A stretch of DNA of 64,000 bases from Octopus vulgaris (taxonomy: Eukaryota). The notes below the pieces were generated by a model. That model was not told where the DNA came from. It saw only the letters and a list, made by a program, of their open reading frames with translations, and ran no database searches. This document shows positions 3,905 through 62,523 of this stretch, one piece after another. A program made the position numbers and the translations under genes. The stretch is taken from assembly GCA_951406725.2 (NCBI GenBank), contig OX597831.1, positions 19,716,001 through 19,780,000 on the forward strand, read 5' to 3'. Position 1 is the stretch's first letter. Each line of letters opens with the position of its first letter.

Positions 3905-6900
3905 ACTTGCACATGCAAGTGCTACCAGTTAAAAGCTCCGTATATCGGAAGCTAGCAAGTTTATGGGGTCATCAGGAGAGAATGCGCGCCGTTTCGGGGC
4001 CTACCTCTCGACGGCATCAATGCGCACCGGCCCCCTCACTGATATGAGGCCCCGCTTGCTAGATCAGCTGGTTATGATGAACTCAATATACTTCTAGCCA
4101 TCGCTCATCGTCTCTTTTTAACCAAATCCAGTGGCTAGCCTTCTCCACTGTAGATTGGATATCAGTCATGGTGGTATTGACTTTACGATGAGTTAGGCCT
4201 AACGATAACAACAGTCGTCTCACGCTGTGTCCTACAAACCCTCTACATCCGACTTCGATAGGAAAATGTTCCGCTTTCCAGCCTGCGTCTTCATATTCCT
4301 CGAGGAGGTTTTCATAACGGTTTAATTTTCGAGCTCGAGCGGCGTCCATATTATCTTCGTGAGGAACCGTTAGCTCGACTATATTTAAAACTTTCTTTCT
4401 TTCACACCACATCAAAATATCTGGTTTTTTCGAAACTGGGATGGGAAAGAAAACCTGGCACCCAGGTAAATCTGCAGTTACCTCCCAATAGTCGTTCCAC
4501 TTTTCATTTTTCTCAGGAAGTTTCTTGGTCTTCTTCTTGAAACGGATCTGCTGACCTGGTCGCACGAAGGTAATGAACTCTCTTGATGGTACTTTTAACG
4601 ATTTTTCCTCAGTGTTGTTGAGATGAATTTGATTCTTTATAGCATTGAAGATAACCTTAAGGACCAAGTTGTGCCTCCATGTGTACCTGTTCAATGCTAA
4701 CGAACAGTTGGAAAGAATATGTTTTAGTGTACCGACTTTTCCACATTTGCAGACGTCATTCTCTAAGACGTTCCATCTTACTAGATTCGTAGGTGATGGC
4801 AAAACATCATAAGATGAACGAATCAGGAAACTCAGCCGAGATGTTGTCCACTTCCACATCTCATCCCAACTTATCTTCCTCTCAACAACATGTTCTTCCC
4901 ATCTCGTCATCTGACCTTGATGAACACATCGGATCAAATGAAGCTCTCTTCTCTCTGCTTCTCTTGTTTTGACGCTGTTGCTAACAACAGATCTGCGTTC
5001 ACACGGCATCATGCTTGCAAACGGTCTGAACTGATCCGCGCCAAAACCAAATCCTTTCCGATGGTTCTGCGTTGCTCCCACCATATCTCTGTGTGTAAGA
5101 GAAGACAAGATGTTGTCAGTTTCTGCTTCTGCTTTCCACTTCCTGGCTGTTTTCACCTCTGGTGGGTTACGCCTGATTTCCATATCCTTCGATTCTCTCA
5201 GCATCATGACCGTCCGTATCTTCCCCAACTTATATATTTCGACTATTGAGGCTATTGGTAACTGCAACGAACCTCTTTTACGATAAAGAGCTGAGCTGTT
5301 CAACATACGAGGTAGACCTAGCCACTTTCTAATGAACACATTACATTTTTGTTCGATCTTTTCAACTCGTGACAATGCTACTTCGTATATTAAAAGTGGC
5401 CACGCAAGTCGCGGGTACAGGCCGAACTGCAAGCACCAAATTTTATATTTACCTGGTAACTTCGAAACATCAATCGCTGATAACCCAGCCTCGGCCTGTT
5501 TCATAATTTCAATCCCACGACTTCTATCTGACAATGTTCCAGCGTATACTCGTCCCAAGCTCTTGACGGGCTCTTCCTTGACTGTTGGAATGCTTTCTTC
5601 CGATATTCGAAATTTAAATTCTTTCTGCACTCCCTTAACAAATGTCAGACTACGCGACTTTTTTGCTCTAAATCGCATCCTTGACCACCTTACACGTTCG
5701 TCTAATCTCAAAAGGGCATTCTGCATGATTTGTTTATCTGTAGCTAGAAGTGTCACGTCATCCATGAAGGCTTTCTTAGGCGATTGTACATGGGCGATTT
5801 GTTCCGAAAAATCTACACCTTTCAAAATCAACTCCATGACTAAGATAAACCACGTGACAGATATTGTACAGCCAGCAGCAATGCCAACCTCCAATCGGTG
5901 CCAATTTGTTGTAAAACTTCCAGTTGTAAACCTCATTTCGAAACTTTCATAGTACATCCTCATTATTTTGATCACTTTGTCAGGAATGTGGAAGTGGTCC
6001 ATGGCTGTTATTAGTAATTTGTGTGGCACTGAACCATACGCGTTAGCTAGGTCGAGCCATACCACGTTCAGACTTTTCTTGTTCTGTTTGGCATCCTGAA
6101 TCGCTTTCCAAATCGAAAAACAGTGTTCAACGCATCCAGGGATCCCGGGGATTCCGGCCTTTTGAACAGATTCATCAACATATCCGTTACTCTGTAAATA
6201 TGTCACTGTTCTCCTCGACAGAATTCCCATAAAGATCTTGCCTTCCACATTCAATAAGGATATCGGCCTAAACTGTTTTATGGTCTTTGCATTGGCCTCT
6301 TTCGGCAGGTATATACCTTCTGCCTTACACCAATCCTCTACTATAGTCTCCTCGCGCCACAGTTGTCGGATTAGGACGAAGAGCTTCTTTCGCAGACGAT
6401 TGCAGTATTTGTAGACTTTATATGAGACGCCATCACCTCCTGGGGCACTCTTCGCTCTAGCTTTTCTTACGAAGTCATTCACCTCTCTCTCCCTGATGTC
6501 CCCAATCTGGAATTCGATATCAGGTCCTGAGAGATGATTTAGCCCATGTAGAGATGGCAGCGGCTGATTACGGTGCGGATCGCTGTAGGTTTCCTTGATA
6601 TGAGCATCCAATTCTTCTTTAGTGCACGATAAAGTACCACTCTTCGGCTCAGTGAACAGCTTCTTAGTAAACCCGTACGGGTCCTTCAGAAACTGCCCTC
6701 GAGTCCTTTTACTTTCTTTTCGACGCTCATATCGGCGAATATGTCGTTGCACATAACGACATTTCCTCTTCAAATCGTTATACAGCAACGCAAGGCCAGG
6801 TTTCTCATCTAGTGCAGCACATCTCCATCTCTTTCTTAAGTCGGACTTTTCCTTCCTCAACTGCTGCATTTTTCTGATCCTCCTGCTTGGTCCACACTTT

Positions 6901-7010
6901 CCTTTCTCTAGTCGGATATTCTCTTTTATTCCAAATAAATCTCTTGCTACATCGTATATTGAGCTTGATAATTTTCCCAGTTTTTCCACTGTAGAGCCTG
7001 TCATTTTATA
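3905..7010 (-). mobile_element. HERO-type (R2 superfamily) non-LTR retrotransposon, 5'-truncated
   Basis: 973-aa ORF plus a GC-rich, self-complementary ~170-nt 3' UTR; no N-terminal zinc finger; in-frame stop 8 codons upstream of the Met. Confidence 0.85.
4083..7004 (-). CDS. Reverse transcriptase + CCHC knuckle + restriction-like endonuclease
   Basis: SAPGGDG, FRPISLLNVEGKIF, WLDLANAYGSVPH, GIAAGCTIS, KAFMDD; CKCG...LKHILSNC...RYTWRHN; KPDI...IVELTVPHE...KLNRY...PIEVGCRG. Confidence 0.93.
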   Translation of the reverse strand: MTGSTVEKLGKLSSSIYDVARDLFGIKENIRLEKGKCGPSRRIRKMQQLRKEKSDLRKRWRCAALDEKPGLALLYNDLKRKCRYVQRHIRRYERRKESKRTRGQFLKDPYGFTKKLFTEPKSGTLSCTKEELDAHIKETYSDPHRNQPLPSLHGLNHLSGPDIEFQIGDIREREVNDFVRKARAKSAPGGDGVSYKVYKYCNRLRKKLFVLIRQLWREETIVEDWCKAEGIYLPKEANAKTIKQFRPISLLNVEGKIFMGILSRRTVTYLQSNGYVDESVQKAGIPGIPGCVEHCFSIWKAIQDAKQNKKSLNVVWLDLANAYGSVPHKLLITAMDHFHIPDKVIKIMRMYYESFEMRFTTGSFTTNWHRLEVGIAAGCTISVTWFILVMELILKGVDFSEQIAHVQSPKKAFMDDVTLLATDKQIMQNALLRLDERVRWSRMRFRAKKSRSLTFVKGVQKEFKFRISEESIPTVKEEPVKSLGRVYAGTLSDRSRGIEIMKQAEAGLSAIDVSKLPGKYKIWCLQFGLYPRLAWPLLIYEVALSRVEKIEQKCNVFIRKWLGLPRMLNSSALYRKRGSLQLPIASIVEIYKLGKIRTVMMLRESKDMEIRRNPPEVKTARKWKAEAETDNILSSLTHRDMVGATQNHRKGFGFGADQFRPFASMMPCERRSVVSNSVKTREAERRELHLIRCVHQGQMTRWEEHVVERKISWDEMWKWTTSRLSFLIRSSYDVLPSPTNLVRWNVLENDVCKCGKVGTLKHILSNCSLALNRYTWRHNLVLKVIFNAIKNQIHLNNTEEKSLKVPSREFITFVRPGQQIRFKKKTKKLPEKNEKWNDYWEVTADLPGCQVFFPIPVSKKPDILMWCERKKVLNIVELTVPHEDNMDAARARKLNRYENLLEEYEDAGWKAEHFPIEVGCRGFVGHSVRRLLLSLGLTHRKVNTTMTDIQSTVEKASHWIWLKRDDERWLEVY

Positions 7011-7799
7011 AAGAGTCCGACAAGTTTACTATTCTTACTATTTTGTCGTTAAATTGACGAAGTTTTGTTTTATTTGGTTCAACAACGATAGCGTTGTTGG
7101 TTAAATATTTCCATTCACTGGTTCGCTCGATTTTAAACGGTTTCACTAGCAAAAGAGTTTGTATGTTTGCAACAAAATAAAAGATTTCGTTTCTAAAAAG
7201 AGGCTTTTCTATTTTGTAGACTAAAAACACGCACATGCACACACATCTCACTTATTCATGCATACATGCGTGTGTGTCACATGTATAAATGTACATATAT
7301 ATATATATATTATTTATTGAACGCCCCTCGTATATACATATAAAGAGGTCACATATGTGTGGCGAAAGATTTCCAGAAAATAAACACACGATGAAATAAT
7401 AACAATGATGAACGAGTGAAGAACGAATATATAGGTCGTGTTTATTTGACAAGAAAAACAACATTACCGTTATATAATTTCTCCATTATTTTGTGTACAT
7501 CTTTCAACCTGACGCAAATGTCAGGCAGCATTTGAAATATTAGTTACTGAAACTGCCAAATAAACAATGCACCGTGTAGTAATAAGAGAATATTTTGTTT
7601 CCGAGAAAATTGCAATAGATTCAAGGAAAATATTTAATTGAATACAGCAGTTGCGAAAATAGAAACAGGTCGCTAGTGAAAAGCATTAACAAGTGACTAG
7701 AACGGGGCTGGTTTAACGTTGGCGAGTGCCTAATGGGAAAGGGTCAAAATGGGAAATGTAACAATCGTCAAGTCATTCGCATGTATGTGATAGAAGGAT

Positions 7800-25344: not shown

Positions 25345-25550
25345 GGCGTGAGGTGGCTGAGAGGTAAAAAGCTCGCTTCTCAACCACATGGTTCCGGGTT
25401 CAGTCACACTGTAAAGCAGTTTGAGCAAATGTCTTCTACTATAGTCTTGGGGCGAAAAAAGGCTTGTGAATGGAGGTGGTAGACGTTTCGGGGTAAATAA
25501 AATAACTACTAGTGGAGCAGTGGAGTCAATGTAATGGACTTAACCCTCAC
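25345..25550 (+). mobile_element. SINE family A 5' half joined to a family B fragment
   Basis: A/B boxes at 25353-25405, then tttcggggtaaataaaataa...tggagtcaatgtaatggactta. Confidence 0.65.
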
Positions 25551-25552
25551 CA

Positions 25553-28500
25553 ACATCTGGCGACTTGGGTATAGCTTCAAATTTTCTTACATCTTGTGCC
25601 TTGGGTATAGCCATCCAATTTCTTACATCTGGCGAACTGGGTATAGCCTCAAAGTTTCTTACATCTCACGCCCTGGGTATAGCCTCCAAGTTTCTTACAT
25701 CTTGCGCCCTAGTTATAGCTTCCAAGCTTCTTACATCTGGCGCCCTGGGTACAGCCTCCAAGTTTCTTACATCTGGCGCCCTGGGTATAGCCTCCAAGCC
25801 TCTTACATCTGGCATCCTAGGTATAGCCTCCAAGCTTCTTACATCTGGCAAACTGAATATGGCCTCCAAGCATCTTATATCTGGCACCCTGGGTATAGCC
25901 TCCACGTTTCATACATCTACTGCCCTGGGTATAGCCACCAAATTTCTTATATCTGGCGCCCAGGGTATAGCCTCCAAGTTTCTTATATCTGGCGCCCTCG
26001 GTATAGCCTCCAAGCTTCTTACATCTGGAGCCCTGGGTATAGCCTCCAAGATTTTTACATCTGGCAAACTGGGTATAACCTCCAAGCTTCTTACAGCTGA
26101 CGCCCTGGGTATAGCCTCCAAGTTTCTTACATCTGGCGGCCTGGGTATAGCCTCCAAACTTCTTATATCTGGCACCCTGTGTATAGCTTCAAAGCTTCTT
26201 ACATCTGGCGCTCTGGGTATAGCCACCAAGCTTCTTAAATCTGGCACTCTGAGTATAGCCTCCAAGCTTCTTATAACTGGAACCCTGTGTATAGCCTCCA
26301 AGCTTTTTACATATGGCGCATTGGGTATAGCCTCAAAGCTTCTAACATCTGGCGCACTGGGTACAGCCTCCAAGCTTTTTATATTTGGCGCCCTGGGTAT
26401 AGCCACCAAGTTTCTTACATCTGGCACCCTGGGTATAGCCTCCAAGCTTCTTGCATCAGGCGCCCTGGGTATAGCCTCCAAGCTTCTTATATCTGACGCC
26501 CTGAGTATAGCCTCCAAGCTTCTTACATCTAGGGCCCTGGGAATAGCCTCCAAGTTTCTTAAATCTGGCGCCCTGGTTATAACCTCCAAGCATCTTATAT
26601 TTGGCACCCTGGATATAGCCTCCAAGTTTCTTAATCTAGCGCCCTGGTTATAGCCTCCAAACCTCTTTCATCTGGCACCCTGGGTATAGCTTCCAAGTTT
26701 CTTTCCTCTGACGCCCTGGGTATAGCTTCCAAGCTTCTTACATCTGGCGCCCTTGGTGTAGCCTCCAATTTTCTCACATCTGTCACCCTGGGTATAGCCT
26801 TCAAGCTTTTTACATCTGGCACTCTGGGTATAGCCTCCAAGCTTCTTACATTTGACACACTGGGTATAGCCTCAAAGCTTCTTACATCTAGTATCCTGGG
26901 TGTAGACTCCAAGCTTCTTCTATCTGGCACCTGGGTATAGCCTCAAAGCTTCTTACATTTGGTGCCTGGGTATAGCTTCAAAGCTTCATACATCTGGCGC
27001 CCTGGGTATGGCCTCCAATATTCTTAAATCTTCAGCCCTGTGTATAGCCTCAGAGCTTCTTACATCTGGCACACCGGGTATAGACTCCAAGTTTCTTACA
27101 TCTGAGGCCCTGGGTATAGCATCCAAGTTTCTTACATTTGACGCCCTTGGAATAGCTTCCGAGCTTCTTACATCTAGCGCCCTGGGTATAGCCTCCAAGT
27201 TTCTTATATCTGGCACAATGTGTATAGACTGCAAGCTTCTTACATCTTGTTCCCTGGGTATAGCCTTCAAGCTTCTTACATCTGACGCCCTGGGTATAGC
27301 ATCCAAGTTTCTTACATTTGAGGCCCTGGGTATAGCTACTTACATCTGGTGCCATGGGTATAGCCTCCAAGGTTCTTAAATCTGGCACCCTGGGTATAGC
27401 CGCCAAGTTTCTTATATCTAGCACCTGGGGTATAGCCTCCAAGCTTCTGACATATGGAACCCTGGGTAGAGCCTAAAAGTTTCTCATATCTGGCACATTG
27501 GGTATAGCCTCCAAGCTTCTTACATCTGGCGCACTGGGTATATCCTCCAAGCTTCTTACATCTGGTGCCATGGGTATAGCTTCCAAGGTTCTTAAATCTG
27601 GCACCCTGGGTATAGCCTCCAAGTTTCTTATATCTGGCACCTGGGGTATAGCCTCCAAGCTTCTTACATCTGGGGCACCGGGTACAGCCTCCAAGATTCT
27701 AACATCTGGCAAACTGGGTATAGCCTTCAAGCTTCTTACCTCTGGCGCCCTGGGTATAGCCTCTAAGCTTTTTATATTTGGCGCCCTGGGTATAGCCTCC
27801 AAGTTTCTTACAAGTGGTGCACTGGGTATAGCCTCCAAGCTTCATACATCTGACACCCTGGGAATAGACTCCAAGTTTCTTACATCTGGCGCCCTGGGTA
27901 TTGACTTCAAGCTTTATACATCTGGCGCCTTGGGTATAGCCTCCAAGCTTCTTAAATCTGGCGCCCTGGTTATAGCCTCCAAGCATCTTATATTTGGCTC
28001 CCGGGATATAGCCTCCAAGTTTCTTAATCTAGCGCCCTGGTTATAGCCTCCAAACTTCTTTCATCTGGCGCCCTGGGTATAGCCTCCAAGTTTCTTTCCT
28101 CTGGCGCCCTGGGTATAGCTTCCAAGCTTCTTACATCTGGCGCTCTGGCTAGAGCCTACAAGTTTCTTACATCTGGCACCCTGGGTGTAGCCTCCAAATT
28201 TTTTACATCTCGCGCCCTGACTATAGCCTCCAAGTTTCTCACATCTGGCACCCTGTGTATAGCCTTCAAGCTTTTTACATCTGGCACTCTGGGTATAGCC
28301 TCCAAGCTTCTTACATTTGGCACACTGGGTATAGCCTCGAAGCTTTTTACATCTGGTATCCTGGGTTTCAGACTCCAAGCTTCTTATTTGGCGCCTGGGT
28401 ATAGCTTCAAAGCTTCATACATCTGGCGCCCTGGGTATGGTCACCAAGTTTCTTAAATCTTCAGCCCTGGGTATAGCCTCCAAGCTTCTTACATCTGGCA

Positions 28501-31500
28501 CACTGGGTGTAGCCTCCAAGTTTCTTACATCTGGCTCCCTGAGTATAGCATCCAAGTTTCTTACATTTGACGCCCTGGGAATAGCCTCCAAGCTCCTTAC
28601 ATCTGGCACACTGTGTATAACCTCCAAGTTTCTTATATCTGGCACCATGGGTATAGACTCCAAGCTTCTTACATCTTGTTCCCTGGGTATAGCCTTCAAG
28701 CTTCTTAAATCTGGCAAACTGGGTATAGCCTCCAAGTTTCTTACATCTGGCGCCCTGAGTATAGCCTCCAAGCTACTTACATCTGGTGCCAAGGGTATAG
28801 ACTCCAAGGTTCTTAAATCTGGCACCCTGGGTATAGCCTCAAAGTTTCTTATATCTGGCACCTTGGGTAAAGCCTCCAAGCTTCTTACGTCTGGCGCACT
28901 GGGTTTAGCCTACAAGTTTCTAACATCTGGCAAACAGGGTATAGCCTTCAAGCTTCTTTCCTCTGGCGCCCTGGGTATAGCCTCCAAGCTTTTTATATTT
29001 GGCGCCATGGGTATAGCCTCCAAAGTTCTTACATCTGGCGCCCTGGGTATAGACTCAAATCTTCTTACATCTGGCGCCTAGGGAATAGCCTCCAAGCTTC
29101 AAACATCTGGCATACTGGGTATAGCCTCCAAGTTTCTTACATCTGGCACACTGGGTATAGCCTCCAAGCTACTTACATCTGGTGCAATGGGTATAGCCTC
29201 CAAGCTTCTTCAATCTGGCGCCCTGGGAATAGCCTCCGAGTTTCTTATATCTAGCACATTGGGTATAGCATCCAAGCTTCTTAAATCTGGCACAATGGGT
29301 ATAGCCTCCAAGTGTCTTATATCTGGCACAATGGGTATAGCCTCCAAGGTTCTTTTATCTGGCATCCTGGGTATAGCTTCAAAGCTTCATACATCTGGCA
29401 CCCTGTGTATGGCCTCCAAGTTTCTTACATCTGTAATCTGGGGTATAGCCTCCAAGCTTCTTACATCTCGCGCCCTGGGTATAGCCTCCAAGATTCTTAT
29501 ATCTGGCACCCTGGGTATAGCTTCAAAACTTCTTACATCTAGCGCCCTGGCAATAGACTCCAGGATTCTTACATATGTCGCCCTGGGTATAGCCCCAAAA
29601 CATCCTACATCTTGCGCCCTGAGTATACCCTCCAAGCTTCTTACATCTGACGCCCTGGGTATAGTATCCAAATTTTTACATCTGACGCACTGGGTATAGC
29701 CTCCAGTTTCTTATATCGGGCACCCTGGGTATAGACTGCAAGCTTCATTCATCTGGTTCCCTGGGTATAGCCTCCAACCTTCTTACATCAGGCGCGCTGG
29801 TTATAGTCTCCAAGTTTCTTATATCTGGGTCCCTGGGTATAGTTTCCAGGTTTCTTACATCTGGCGCCCTGGGTATAGAGTCCAAGCTTCTTACATCTGG
29901 CGCCCTGGGTGTAGCCTCCAAGCTTCTTATATCTGGCACCCTGGGTACAGCTTCAAAGCTTCTTACATCTGGCGCTCTGGGTATTGCCTCCAAGCTTCTT
30001 ACATCTGGCACTCTGAGCATAGCCTCCAAGCTTGTTGTATCTGGAACCCTGGTTATAGCCTCCAAGCTTTTTACAACTGGCGCCCTGGGTATAGCCTCCA
30101 AGCATTTTATATTTAACGCCCTGGGTATAGCCTCCAAGTTTCTTACATCTAGTGCCCTGGGTATAGCCTCCAATCTTCTTAAATCAGGAGACCTGGGTAT
30201 ACCCTCCAAGTTTCTTACATCTGGCGCCCTGGATATAGCCTCAAAGTTTCTTACATCTGGCACCCTAGATATAGCCTCCAAGTTTCTTACATCTGGCACC
30301 CTGGGTATAGCCTCGAATTTTCTTACTTCTGGCAACTTGGGTATAGCGTCCAAGTTTCTTCCATTTGGTGCCCTGGGTATAGCCTCAAAGTTCCTTAAAT
30401 ATGGCGCCCTGTGTCTAGCCTCCAACCTTCTTACATCTGGCGCCCTGGGTATAACCTCCAATTTTCTTGCATCTGGCGCCCTGTGTATAGCCCTCAAGCT
30501 TCTTACATATGGCACCTTGGGTATAGCCTTCAAGTTTCGTACTTCTGGCGTCCTGGGTATAGCCTCCAATTTCCTTACATCTGGCGCCCTGGGTAGGGCC
30601 TCCAACCTTCTTACATCTGATTACATTATAGCCTCCCAGCTCCAGGATTCATTATAGCTACATTATAGCCTCCAAGCTTCTTACATCTGGGTCCCTGGGT
30701 ATAGCCTCCAAGCTTGTTCAATCTGGGTCCCTGGAAATAGCCTCCGAGTTTCTTATATCTGGCACATTGGGTATAGCATCCAAGCTTCTTAAATCTGGCA
30801 CAATGGGTATAGCCTCCAAGTTTCTTATATCTGGCATCCTGGGTTTAGCCTGCAAGCTTCTTATATCTGGCGGCTGGGTATAGCTTCAAAGCTTCATACA
30901 TCTGGCGCCCTGTGTATGGCCTCCAAATTTCTTACATCTGTAACGTCGGGTATATCCTCCAAGTTTCTTACATCTGGCACCATAGGTATAGCCTCCAAGC
31001 TTCTTACATCTCGCGCCCTGGGTATAGCCTCCAAGCTTCTTATATCTGGCAACCTGGGTATAGCTTCAAAGCTTCTTACATCTAGCGCCCTGGCAATAGA
31101 CTCCAGGATTCTTACATCTGTCGCCCTGGGTATCTCCCCGAAACATCCTACATCCTGCGCCCTGAGTATACCCTCCAAGCTTCTTACATCTGACGCCCTG
31201 GGTATAGTATCCAAACTTTTACATCTGACGCCCTGGGTATAGCCTCAAAGTTTCTTATATCGGGCGCGCTGGTTATAGTCTCCAAGTTTCTTACATCTGG
31301 GTCCCTGGGTATAGTTTCCAGGTTTCTTACATCTGCCGCCCTGGGTATAGCCTCCAAGCTTCTTTAATCTGGCGCCCTGGATATAGCCTCAAAGTTTCTT
31401 ACATCTGGCACCCTAGATATAGCCTCCAAGTTTCTTACATCTGACGCCCTGGGTATAGCCTACAAGTTTCTTACATCTGGCGCCCTGGGTATAGCTCGAA

Positions 31501-60852: not shown

Positions 60853-61377
60853 CCGCAGTGGTGGAAAGATTAAGCTCACTGCAATCCCCCATCCTCCAGG
60901 GCCATTGAAGAAACTGTTGTCATCAAGATTCCAAGCACTTCCAAAACAAAATTAGACAATACAACGCTGCACTACAGATGACATCATATGGAACTACAAG
61001 AGACTTAACTGAGTCACAATTCATGCAAACTTTCAAGATCCAAGGTCAGATTTATCATCGGATTGGCCTCTGTCAAAGGAATCACCAAAATCGGCCTTTT
61101 ATTCTTTATAATATGTACCTGTTTTTTTCTTTTACCAAAATAAACTACAGAAAACGTGCTTTGGATTACGTGTTTTTACTTTATATATATATATGAGTTG
61201 AAAACTTTCTTTTAACATTTCACTTAACGTCTATATTCTATGCTGGCATGGGTTGGAGAGTTATTAATGTAGAAAGTTGGTATCTTAGCTACTAGTAGTT
61301 GAAACCTGCGTGATCAAGACGGCGCTTTTAAATTTCATTATTCTCTTTAACCCGGGCAACGCTGGGTATATCTGCTA

Positions 61378-61379
<2 letters not shown>
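60853..61379 (+). mobile_element. Helitron remnant (RepHel N-terminal piece + 3' end)
   Basis: SGGKIKLTAIPHPPGPLKKLL...SKHFQNKIRQYNAALQMTSYG...TFKIQGQIYHRIG; 3' hairpin cccgggcaacgctggg then CTAG|T at 61375-61379. Confidence 0.8.
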
Positions 61380-61416
<37 letters not shown>

Positions 61417-61421
<5 letters not shown>

Positions 61422-62057
61422 CTCTTTCAATTTCAGAATTACAACTATTGGCGGTTTGAGTTTGGCTGCTCTTTCTAGTGAGTCGGATGTCCTATTATGG
61501 CAATTCCTTATATTTTTGAATGTAAATTATATAGTCTTTGACTATTTTTTCTTTCTCGCTAGACCGCTGGTAGCGGAAAATTTTTTCTAGAATTTTTTGC
61601 TACCCTTATATTTATTAATTAATGATTTTTTGACTAATTTTGAAATTAAATCAGCAGTTTATATTTGCTACTGAGAAGACCGCGCGATTTCTGTAGAATT
61701 TTGAAAATTTATAGCATATAGACTGGAGCCTTCTTTACCATTGCCTCGTGGATATATGTTCGTCCTTGGCTTCTCTGCTGACGAGACACGCCAGTTGCAA
61801 ATAAATTTAATTTAATTTAATTAATTTGTTTACCACAGTTTGCCGAAACTATGCATAGACCAGAGATGAAAGGGTAAACGTTTTTATTTCTCTTTCAATT
61901 TCAGAATTACAACTATTAGCGGTTTGAGTTTGGCTGGTCTTTCTAGTGAGTCGGATGTCCTATTATGGCCATTCCTTATATTTTTGAATGTAAATTATAT
62001 AGTCTTTGACTATTTGTTCTCTCTCACTAGACCGCTGGTAGCGGAAAATTTTTCTAG

Positions 62058-62063
<6 letters not shown>
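61417..62063 (+). mobile_element. ORF-less direct-repeat hammerhead element (retrozyme-like), 468-nt period
   Basis: About 180-bp direct repeats 61417-61596 and 61885-62063; hammerhead in the spacer; (TA)n on both sides. Confidence 0.8.
61772..61866 (+). ncRNA. Type I hammerhead motif, cleavage triplet variant
   Basis: UCUCUG-CUGACGA-long stem II-GAAA-CUAUGCAUAG-AC/CAGAGA; U16.1 replaced by A. Confidence 0.65.
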
Positions 62064-62101
<38 letters not shown>

Positions 62102-62105
<4 letters not shown>

Positions 62106-62440
62106 GGTAAAGACCCCCTTCGGTCATGAATGACCATGGGATTGCACCTAGAAAGTTACCCTCCTAGACACAAGTCCGGGCAAGGTTGTTTATGGAAGGC
62201 TAGCAGTCGCCCATGCATACCGGCCTCCCCTCTCCACGCCACCAGTGTTATCCAAGGGAAAGACAAAGGTCGATACAGCTTGGCACCTGTGACGTCGCAA
62301 CTCATTTCTACAGCTGAGTGAACTGGAGCAACGTGAAATAAAATGCCTTGCTCGAGAACACAACACGCAGCCCGGTCCGGGATTCGAGCTCACAACCTCA
62401 CGATCGTAAGCTCGACGCTCTAACCACTGAGCCATGCGCC
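62102..62440 (-). mobile_element. tRNA-derived CORE-like SINE
   Basis: Reverse complement matches 57640-57988. Confidence 0.88.
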
Positions 62441-62441
62441 T

Positions 62442-62486
<45 letters not shown>

Positions 62487-62523
62487 ATATATGTATATAT
62501 ATATATATATGTATATATATATG

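Follow-up and report, generated by a model that had tools for sequence, protein, structure and literature searches.

The window, the whole 64,000-nt stretch of Octopus vulgaris contig OX597831.1 that was analyzed, contains at positions 61417 to 62063 a 647-bp segment made up of 1.38 units of a 468-nt noncoding repeat. The segment lies between two (TA)20 runs, which form the left half (61379 to 61419; [TA]20.5) and the right half (62063 to 62102; [TA]20) of a (TA)n target microsatellite. A first full unit on the plus strand (61417 to 61884; 33% G+C) is followed by a partial second unit (61885 to 62063), which corresponds to unit positions 1 to 180. Ungapped, the direct repeat pairs positions 61417 to 61585 with positions 61885 to 62053 (169 nt, 96% identity, spacing of 468 nt); gapped alignment extends it to 180 nt at 96.1% identity, with differences at 7 of 180 sites. 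The longest stop-to-stop frame within the segment codes for 79 amino acids and runs through the TA repeat. Coordinates and frames thus agree with the first-pass annotation, which had described a repeat, a hammerhead-containing spacer, and the same repeat between (TA)n runs, with a period of 468 nt and no open reading frame (ORF). A blastn search of the window with the 468-nt unit returned no other copy, and a tRNA scan found no tRNA near 61417 to 62063.

The window copy is single-armed, showing the partial tandem without an inverted arm. Its 5' end lies at unit position 1 and its 3' end at unit position 180, which is neither of the two canonical 3' end sites of the family and falls 23 nt short of the usual site at about position 203. 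Mapping of arm ends in other copies placed the first fixed 3' end site (unit position 117) at AUUAUAUA (61526 to 61533), which is read through in the window copy, and the second (unit position ~203) at UUAUAUUUAUUAAU (61606 to 61619), both on the plus strand. The first full unit matches the column majority of 25 full-length copies at 94.9% identity. Four derived bases are common to both repeats of the window copy, with three private to the first repeat and four private to the second.

A 343-nt SINE-like repeat directly adjoins the segment in the same TA microsatellite (62103 to 62445). All 40 of its scored genomic copies were 97 to 100% identical, and 39 were nearly end to end; because the scored copies are so alike and nearly full length, this family is judged very young and probably active. 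ARAGORN reported no tRNA in the 343-nt repeat, whose minus-strand end was judged tRNA-like by eye only. The sequence AAAGGGTAAA after the right TA run was considered as a tail of the 468-nt element and rejected, being the fixed end of the neighboring 343-nt repeat. Elsewhere in the window, weak Chorion_1 matches (31 and 25 bits) occurred at 25544 to 26653 and at 29686 to 30657, with no single stretch passing; these frames are probably low-complexity sequence.

A type I hammerhead-like motif was located on the plus strand at 61764 to 61874, with the core boxes CUGACGA (61778 to 61784) and GAAA (61845 to 61848), a helix III of CUA and UAG around a UGCA loop, and G-A-C at 61858 to 61860. The three bases at 61859 to 61861 are position 16.1, C17, and the base that immediately follows the predicted cut, which would fall between 61860 and 61861 (unit positions 444|445). 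Helix I is open; helix II comprises 4 bp, an internal loop, and 11 bp, leaving ~60 nt between the core boxes; and helix III has 4 bp and a palindromic UGCA loop. The repeated part of the window copy begins 24 nt after the predicted cut. The first-pass annotation had set this boundary about 19 nt after the ribozyme; the offset proved to be one of many variable 5' ends and did not hold across the family.

To the alignment of 51 distinct motif copies, the hammerhead structure was applied by hand, and pairs were then counted. Standard pairs occupied 94% of 1,514 cells (30 pairs), compared with 29 to 47% when the 3' partners were slid by one to three columns. The A15.1-U16.1 pair (GUC) was present in 49 of the 51 copies, as the first-pass annotation had anticipated for a consensus, and GAC was confined to the window copy and one other. 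Compensatory changes were found in helix I (columns 18-113: CG in 39 copies, UA in 8), in proximal helix II (31-91: GC in 31, AU in 11, other in 8), and in distal helix II (50-74: AU in 42, GC in 5). These changes track subfamilies and so amount to about three events, not many. The number of pairs with compensatory change was not raised over shuffled alignments (4 versus a mean of 3.9), and the number of cells with such change was (25 versus 7.2).

Rfam hammerhead models gave no match at the gathering score anywhere in the window and none at E values of ≤10 in 61300 to 62500, where the sole hits were low-complexity look-alikes on TA repeats; nor did they match four sister loci with canonical cores. 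The miss is likely due to the ~60-nt helix II. Because there is no match to a curated model, identification of the motif rests on the core letters and the pairing. RNAalifold applied to the 51 copies recovered distal helix II alone and not the hammerhead fold, and single-sequence folding of the window motif was no better than that of shuffled sequences (z = −0.82). We read the family motif in the aligned sequences as a hammerhead of type I, with predicted cleavage, in which helix II is unusually long and helix III short.

The family has the type I core (CUGANGA, GAAA, and NUH, in order), and the window copy, with GAC, departs from it. The A at position 16.1, pointed out in the first-pass annotation, was read directly at 61858 to 61860. 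A second defect is the A at 61786, where 31 of the 51 copies have G; it stands opposite C, so that the second helix II pair (10.2-11.2) is an A·C mismatch. Because of the GAC in place of GUC and the helix II mismatch, we predict that the ribozyme of the window copy is inactive, and the locus is likely a fossil rather than a source element.

Across the genome (2.8 Gb, 227 contigs), the 468-nt unit yielded 2,665 first-look candidates, the best 40 of which were scored and gave 121 matches on many contigs; identities ranged from 80 to 96%, with the window's own copy at 100%. An 88-nt query (unit positions 30 to 117) yielded 1,777 candidates, 40 of which were scored. The 40 candidates scored in each search were picked by likeness to the query, and the counts are not a census. 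Arms of 0.1 to 2 units with variable ends were dispersed among the copies, in keeping with the variable n-mers and permuted ends expected at the outset. A one-off local tandem duplication carrying a chance hammerhead look-alike, a reading that the Rfam result would favor, is refuted by the 121 matches on many contigs among 40 scored candidates and by a motif that is conserved and covarying in 51 copies, and it is considered extremely improbable.

The 25 full-length copies were 86 to 96% identical to the column majority, and no pair exceeded 98%. Within insertions, repeated portions in direct orientation were 94.2% alike (48 comparisons) and those in inverted orientation were 94.7% alike (34 comparisons); between loci, unit positions 1 to 117 were 91.6% alike. 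The sampled copies are therefore old, given the divergence both among and within them. Every one of the 25 had the same 468-nt unit, and none had a coding insert.

Three further observations concern the spread of the family. A 3-kb nest of at least five family arms (loci L019 and L020; G000:C18:61993367-61996326) includes some tandem portions that are 100% identical (263 and 198 nt) and others that are 92 to 97% identical, which suggests recent local duplication or conversion. A lone 72-nt fragment, 81% like unit positions 46 to 117, lies in a TA run beside a truncated Penelope-like element (PLE) (L043, 326 to 397) and may belong to a diverged sister family. Sequencing runs under two coded organism labels (X1 to X13) hold small shares of family words, with likeness to the window copy mostly <95% for run contigs from organism A and higher for those from organism B; the family may be common to related species.

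Every arm in 62 loci was mapped onto the circular unit. Two samples were used, one selected by likeness to the full unit and biased to long copies, and one selected by likeness to the 88-nt piece and less biased. A (TA)≥4 run was found within 16 nt after the arm 3' end in 81 of 105 cases, compared with 38 of 764 control 16-mers drawn at random from those loci. When 106 arms (76 paired and 30 single) were classed by their ends, 33 ended at unit position ~117, just after AUUAUAUA, 47 ended at ~195 to 211, after UUAUAUUUAUUAAU, and 26 ended elsewhere. The 5' ends were spread all around the unit. Arm lengths ranged from 0.1 to 2.0 units, the longest arm being 938 nt (L019). Of the 58 length-biased arms, 41 were longer than one unit, compared with 3 of the 42 less biased arms; none was longer than 2.0 units, and no long array was seen. 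A constant arm-length difference of 86 nt was looked for, and none was apparent among the listed arm lengths.

In 38 of 68 insertions, there were two arms that lay on opposite strands and faced each other with their 5' ends, and no insertion had arms with 3' ends facing; L031, with a 78-nt gap between its arms, was left out of the two-armed count. Among the 21 two-armed insertions in which both ends were canonical, 19 paired site 117 with site 203, 2 paired 203 with 203, and none paired 117 with 117, whereas random pairing predicts unlike ends in 48.5% (P = 6.5 × 10⁻⁵). One of the two 203/203 cases (L087) had a 24-nt gap between the arms and a TA repeat beside the 5' end of one arm. In twin priming of L1, both cut DNA ends prime on the RNA, which yields an inverted 5' part. 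The octopus family, in which both cut ends are likewise proposed to prime, differs from L1 in that its primers would use fixed AU-rich sites and its two arms overlap widely.

Candidate enzymes were sought through the GIY-YIG domain, for which the genome gave 6,136 candidates; of 150 that were scored, 148 matched, including 16 that lie in open frames precisely 781 amino acids long. One such frame (L071, 945 to 3287; G000:C16) scored 30.6 bits for GIY-YIG, above the cutoff, and 28.9 bits for RVT_1, just under the cutoff of 29.6, and it contained a DKG motif, a linker of the form C-x4-C-x2-C, and a GIY-YIG core with Cys residues. On these features, we read the 781-amino-acid PLE as putatively Neptune-like, following the description in Craig et al. 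2021 (PMC8557442). Copies of this PLE continue for ~1.08 kb beyond the stop codon before ending in (TA)n, and this 3' region contains internal repeats about 90 nt apart (L047, 2026 to 2274 versus 2118 to 2377, 78% identity). Another, truncated PLE also ends in (TA)n. The 468-nt family and the coding PLEs of this genome therefore have the same target, (TA)n being present both at the arm ends counted above and at the ends of the intact 781-amino-acid PLEs.

The architecture of the insertions also resembles that of PLEs. Endonuclease-bearing (EN+) PLEs with a (TA)n bias, including those named Neptune, Naiad, and Hydra, are described in PMC8557442 as having pLTR-like partial tandems, (TA)n targets, and, on the 5' side, an inverted copy that is 5'-truncated, and hammerhead motifs are described there in the noncoding ends of canonical PLEs. 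The combination of partial tandem and inverted 5'-truncated copy was found in the octopus repeat at the level of the family. The octopus repeat differs from EN+ PLEs in lacking an ORF and in having no sequence in common with the PLEs sampled in this genome. A blastn comparison with 30 GIY-YIG/PLE loci (drawn from the 6,136 candidates) gave one hit, the 72-nt retrozyme-like fragment in L043; a profile of the repeat family (nhmmer) found no shared sequence in the 30 PLE loci; and comparison with the full 781-amino-acid PLE by tblastn and nhmmer returned nothing. Because no sequence is common to the repeat and the sampled PLEs, the link between them is one of target and architecture. The insertion marks of the sister copies likely come from a Penelope-type retrotransposon enzyme.

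The same comparisons bear on the idea, raised in the first-pass annotation as a possible refutation, that the spacer is the deletion remnant of a coding PLE that kept its two pLTRs and lost its ORF. Partial tandem repeats are typical of PLEs, and frog retrozyme consensus sequences match PLE termini according to a 2026 preprint by Li, Clavereau, and Pollet (10.64898/2026.07.22.740005), both of which would suit such an origin. Against it, neither the DNA nor the protein comparisons revealed any likeness to the 30 PLE loci or to the full 781-amino-acid element, and the spacer showed no likeness to PLE coding sequence; moreover, the same 468-nt unit without a coding insert recurred in all 25 full-length copies. 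An origin by deletion from a coding PLE is therefore judged very unlikely.

Movement by a (TA)n-targeting reverse transcriptase (RT) of another kind was also considered. The window contains a 980-amino-acid frame on the minus strand (4083 to 7025; RVT_1, 69 bits) with a Cys/His-rich C-terminal part and without GIY-YIG, which is a non-PLE retroelement; TA and ATAG repeats occur ~650 nt past its stop. This element, or the partner of the neighboring SINE-like repeat, could be the source of such an enzyme: the very young 343-nt repeat sits in the same TA microsatellite, and TA runs are very common in this region. The inverted 5'-truncated arms and partial tandems, however, are the footprint described for PLEs in PMC8557442, and transfer by a non-PLE RT is considered unlikely.

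Taken with these comparisons, the 647-bp segment is most probably a decayed, single-armed copy of a many-copy hammerhead repeat in (TA)n, one that was likely inserted by target-primed reverse transcription (TPRT) by a (TA)n-targeting Penelope-like enzyme (RT plus GIY-YIG) from an RNA of more than one unit. Under this reading, a nicked end of the TA-repeat DNA would pair with one of the two AU-rich sites of the RNA (unit position 117 or ~203) and prime cDNA synthesis. In more than half of the insertions, the second cut end would prime at the remaining site, either on that RNA or on an identical one, and so give rise to the inverted arm. Arms that run through the ribozyme's own cut site would have been copied from uncut (concatemeric) or religated (circular) RNA.

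The form of that RNA was addressed through the position of site 444|445, which was internal to 48 of the 58 length-biased arms and to 19 of the 42 less biased ones; no indel was present at this site in any of the 51 aligned motifs. Because a cut linear monomer cannot give arms containing 444|445, the template would have been either an uncut concatemer or a religated circle. Among the 42 less biased arms, 9 had 5' ends in the 28 nt that follow the predicted cut (P = 7 × 10⁻⁴) and 1 had its 5' end in the 26 nt before it, a pile-up that must be read with the caveat that the 88-nt query favors short arms ending near there. In two arms, the 5' ends lay at 445 and 446. Arms longer than one unit had 5' ends at unit positions 452, 453, 461, 1, 1, 2, and 2, that is, 8 to 26 nt after the upstream cut, and the window copy had its 5' end at position 1. 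Both arms stopped at the same coordinate in L018 (2/2) and L077 (460/460).

Contigs from the four best read runs, whose labeling as RNA is a guess, were 66 to 316 nt long and derived from diverged family members. A single joint that appeared to go back 441 nt was a diverged copy aligning across two repeats, and loose contig ends at 61619 ran into TA repeats, as do genomic copies.

One account is rolling-circle reverse transcription, in which hammerhead cleavage and ligation would have yielded a ~468-nt circular RNA around which the cDNA ran more than once. It is consistent with arms of up to 2.0 units (938 nt, L019) that pass seamlessly through 444|445 and with the use of unlike start sites by paired arms (19 versus 2), as expected of a single-unit molecule on which each site occurs once. 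Tandem portions also match one another as closely as inverted arms do, and circular RNAs are documented for mussel, coral, and axolotl retrozymes in Cervera and de la Peña 2020 (PMC7229834). However, the less biased sample contains few arms longer than one unit, and no arm of either sample is longer than 2.0 units; 5' ends cluster just downstream of the predicted cut, where a circle has no end; and the pairing of unlike ends would also follow if the second primer took the next AU-rich site on a linear RNA. Copying around a circle is thus possible, and we lean against it.

The other account invokes a linear RNA of more than one unit, transcribed from a genomic 1.x-mer or tandem, cut upstream, left uncut internally, and copied to its 5' end. 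Many arms longer than one unit do stop 8 to 26 nt past the point where the upstream unit is predicted to be cut, and the arm pairs of L018 and L077 share a stop coordinate, which is the pattern expected of run-off from a single RNA end. Few stops coincide exactly with the cut, though; AU-rich microhomology with the target could set the junctions instead; and sampling with the 88-nt query favors short arms ending near the cut. A linear template is accordingly rated as a serious possibility that falls somewhat short of an even chance. Where the first-pass annotation had inferred either cDNA copied more than once around a ~470-nt circle or a minimal nonautonomous PLE, the assignment to retrozymes or minimal nonautonomous PLEs stood. 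Repeated rounds on a circle are one of two possibilities, since the template must exceed one unit and a linear concatemer would satisfy this equally.

In terms of known elements, the locus is an unremarkable, decayed animal non-LTR retrozyme. Such retrozymes are described in PMC7229834 as noncoding, low-G+C elements of 170 to 400 nt with type I hammerheads. The octopus family shares with metazoan non-LTR retrozymes a noncoding unit of a few hundred nucleotides with 33% G+C and a type I hammerhead, together with many dispersed copies and coexisting PLEs. Head-to-tail repetition is limited, the window copy having one motif in its 1.38 units. The 468-nt unit is longer than the 170 to 400 nt given in PMC7229834 and is within the range of 51 to 972 bp for retrozyme consensus sequences in the 2026 preprint (10.64898/2026.07.22.740005), which reports likeness to PLE pLTRs in frogs. 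Differences from these retrozymes also include the very long helix II (~60 nt between core boxes); the occurrence of copies as one- or two-armed insertions of 0.1 to 2.0 units rather than as long arrays; and the targeting of TA repeats, the two fixed 3' ends (putative start sites), and the inverted second arm. Compared with the minimal dimeric hammerheads of PLEs and newt satellites, as presented in Cervera and de la Peña 2014 (PMC4209133), the motif is likewise of type I with a short helix III and a palindromic tetraloop (UGCA here), but its helix III has 4 pairs instead of 1 or 2 and its helix II is much longer.

PMC7229834 nowhere uses the words octopus, cephalopod, microsatellite, or target site. 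A literature search on cephalopod or octopus retrozymes, with bioRxiv supplements outside its scope, returned no article describing them or TA-repeat targeting, and a search for Penelope-like elements together with twin priming returned articles on other subjects only.

As a dead copy of a known class, the locus itself matters little. The family is useful because the element abuts a TA repeat, which makes its 3' ends sharp, and in that its insertions are often two-armed. Its copies display the start points of reverse transcription, the unlike start sites of the two arms, and long arms that mostly cross the cut site. We suggest, tentatively and with more doubt than either template reading alone, that the genomic copies preserve the way in which a Penelope-type enzyme reverse transcribes ribozyme RNA, that the two cut ends of the TA-repeat target primed at different fixed AU-rich sites of one small RNA, with synthesis passing through the cleavage-ligation junction, and that circular or religated hammerhead RNA would then be the template of retrotransposition in cephalopods. 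The published literature leaves open which enzyme mobilizes animal retrozymes and what form of RNA it copies; the family bears on this question and offers a compact system for addressing it, consisting of a 468-nt RNA and a 781-amino-acid PLE protein.
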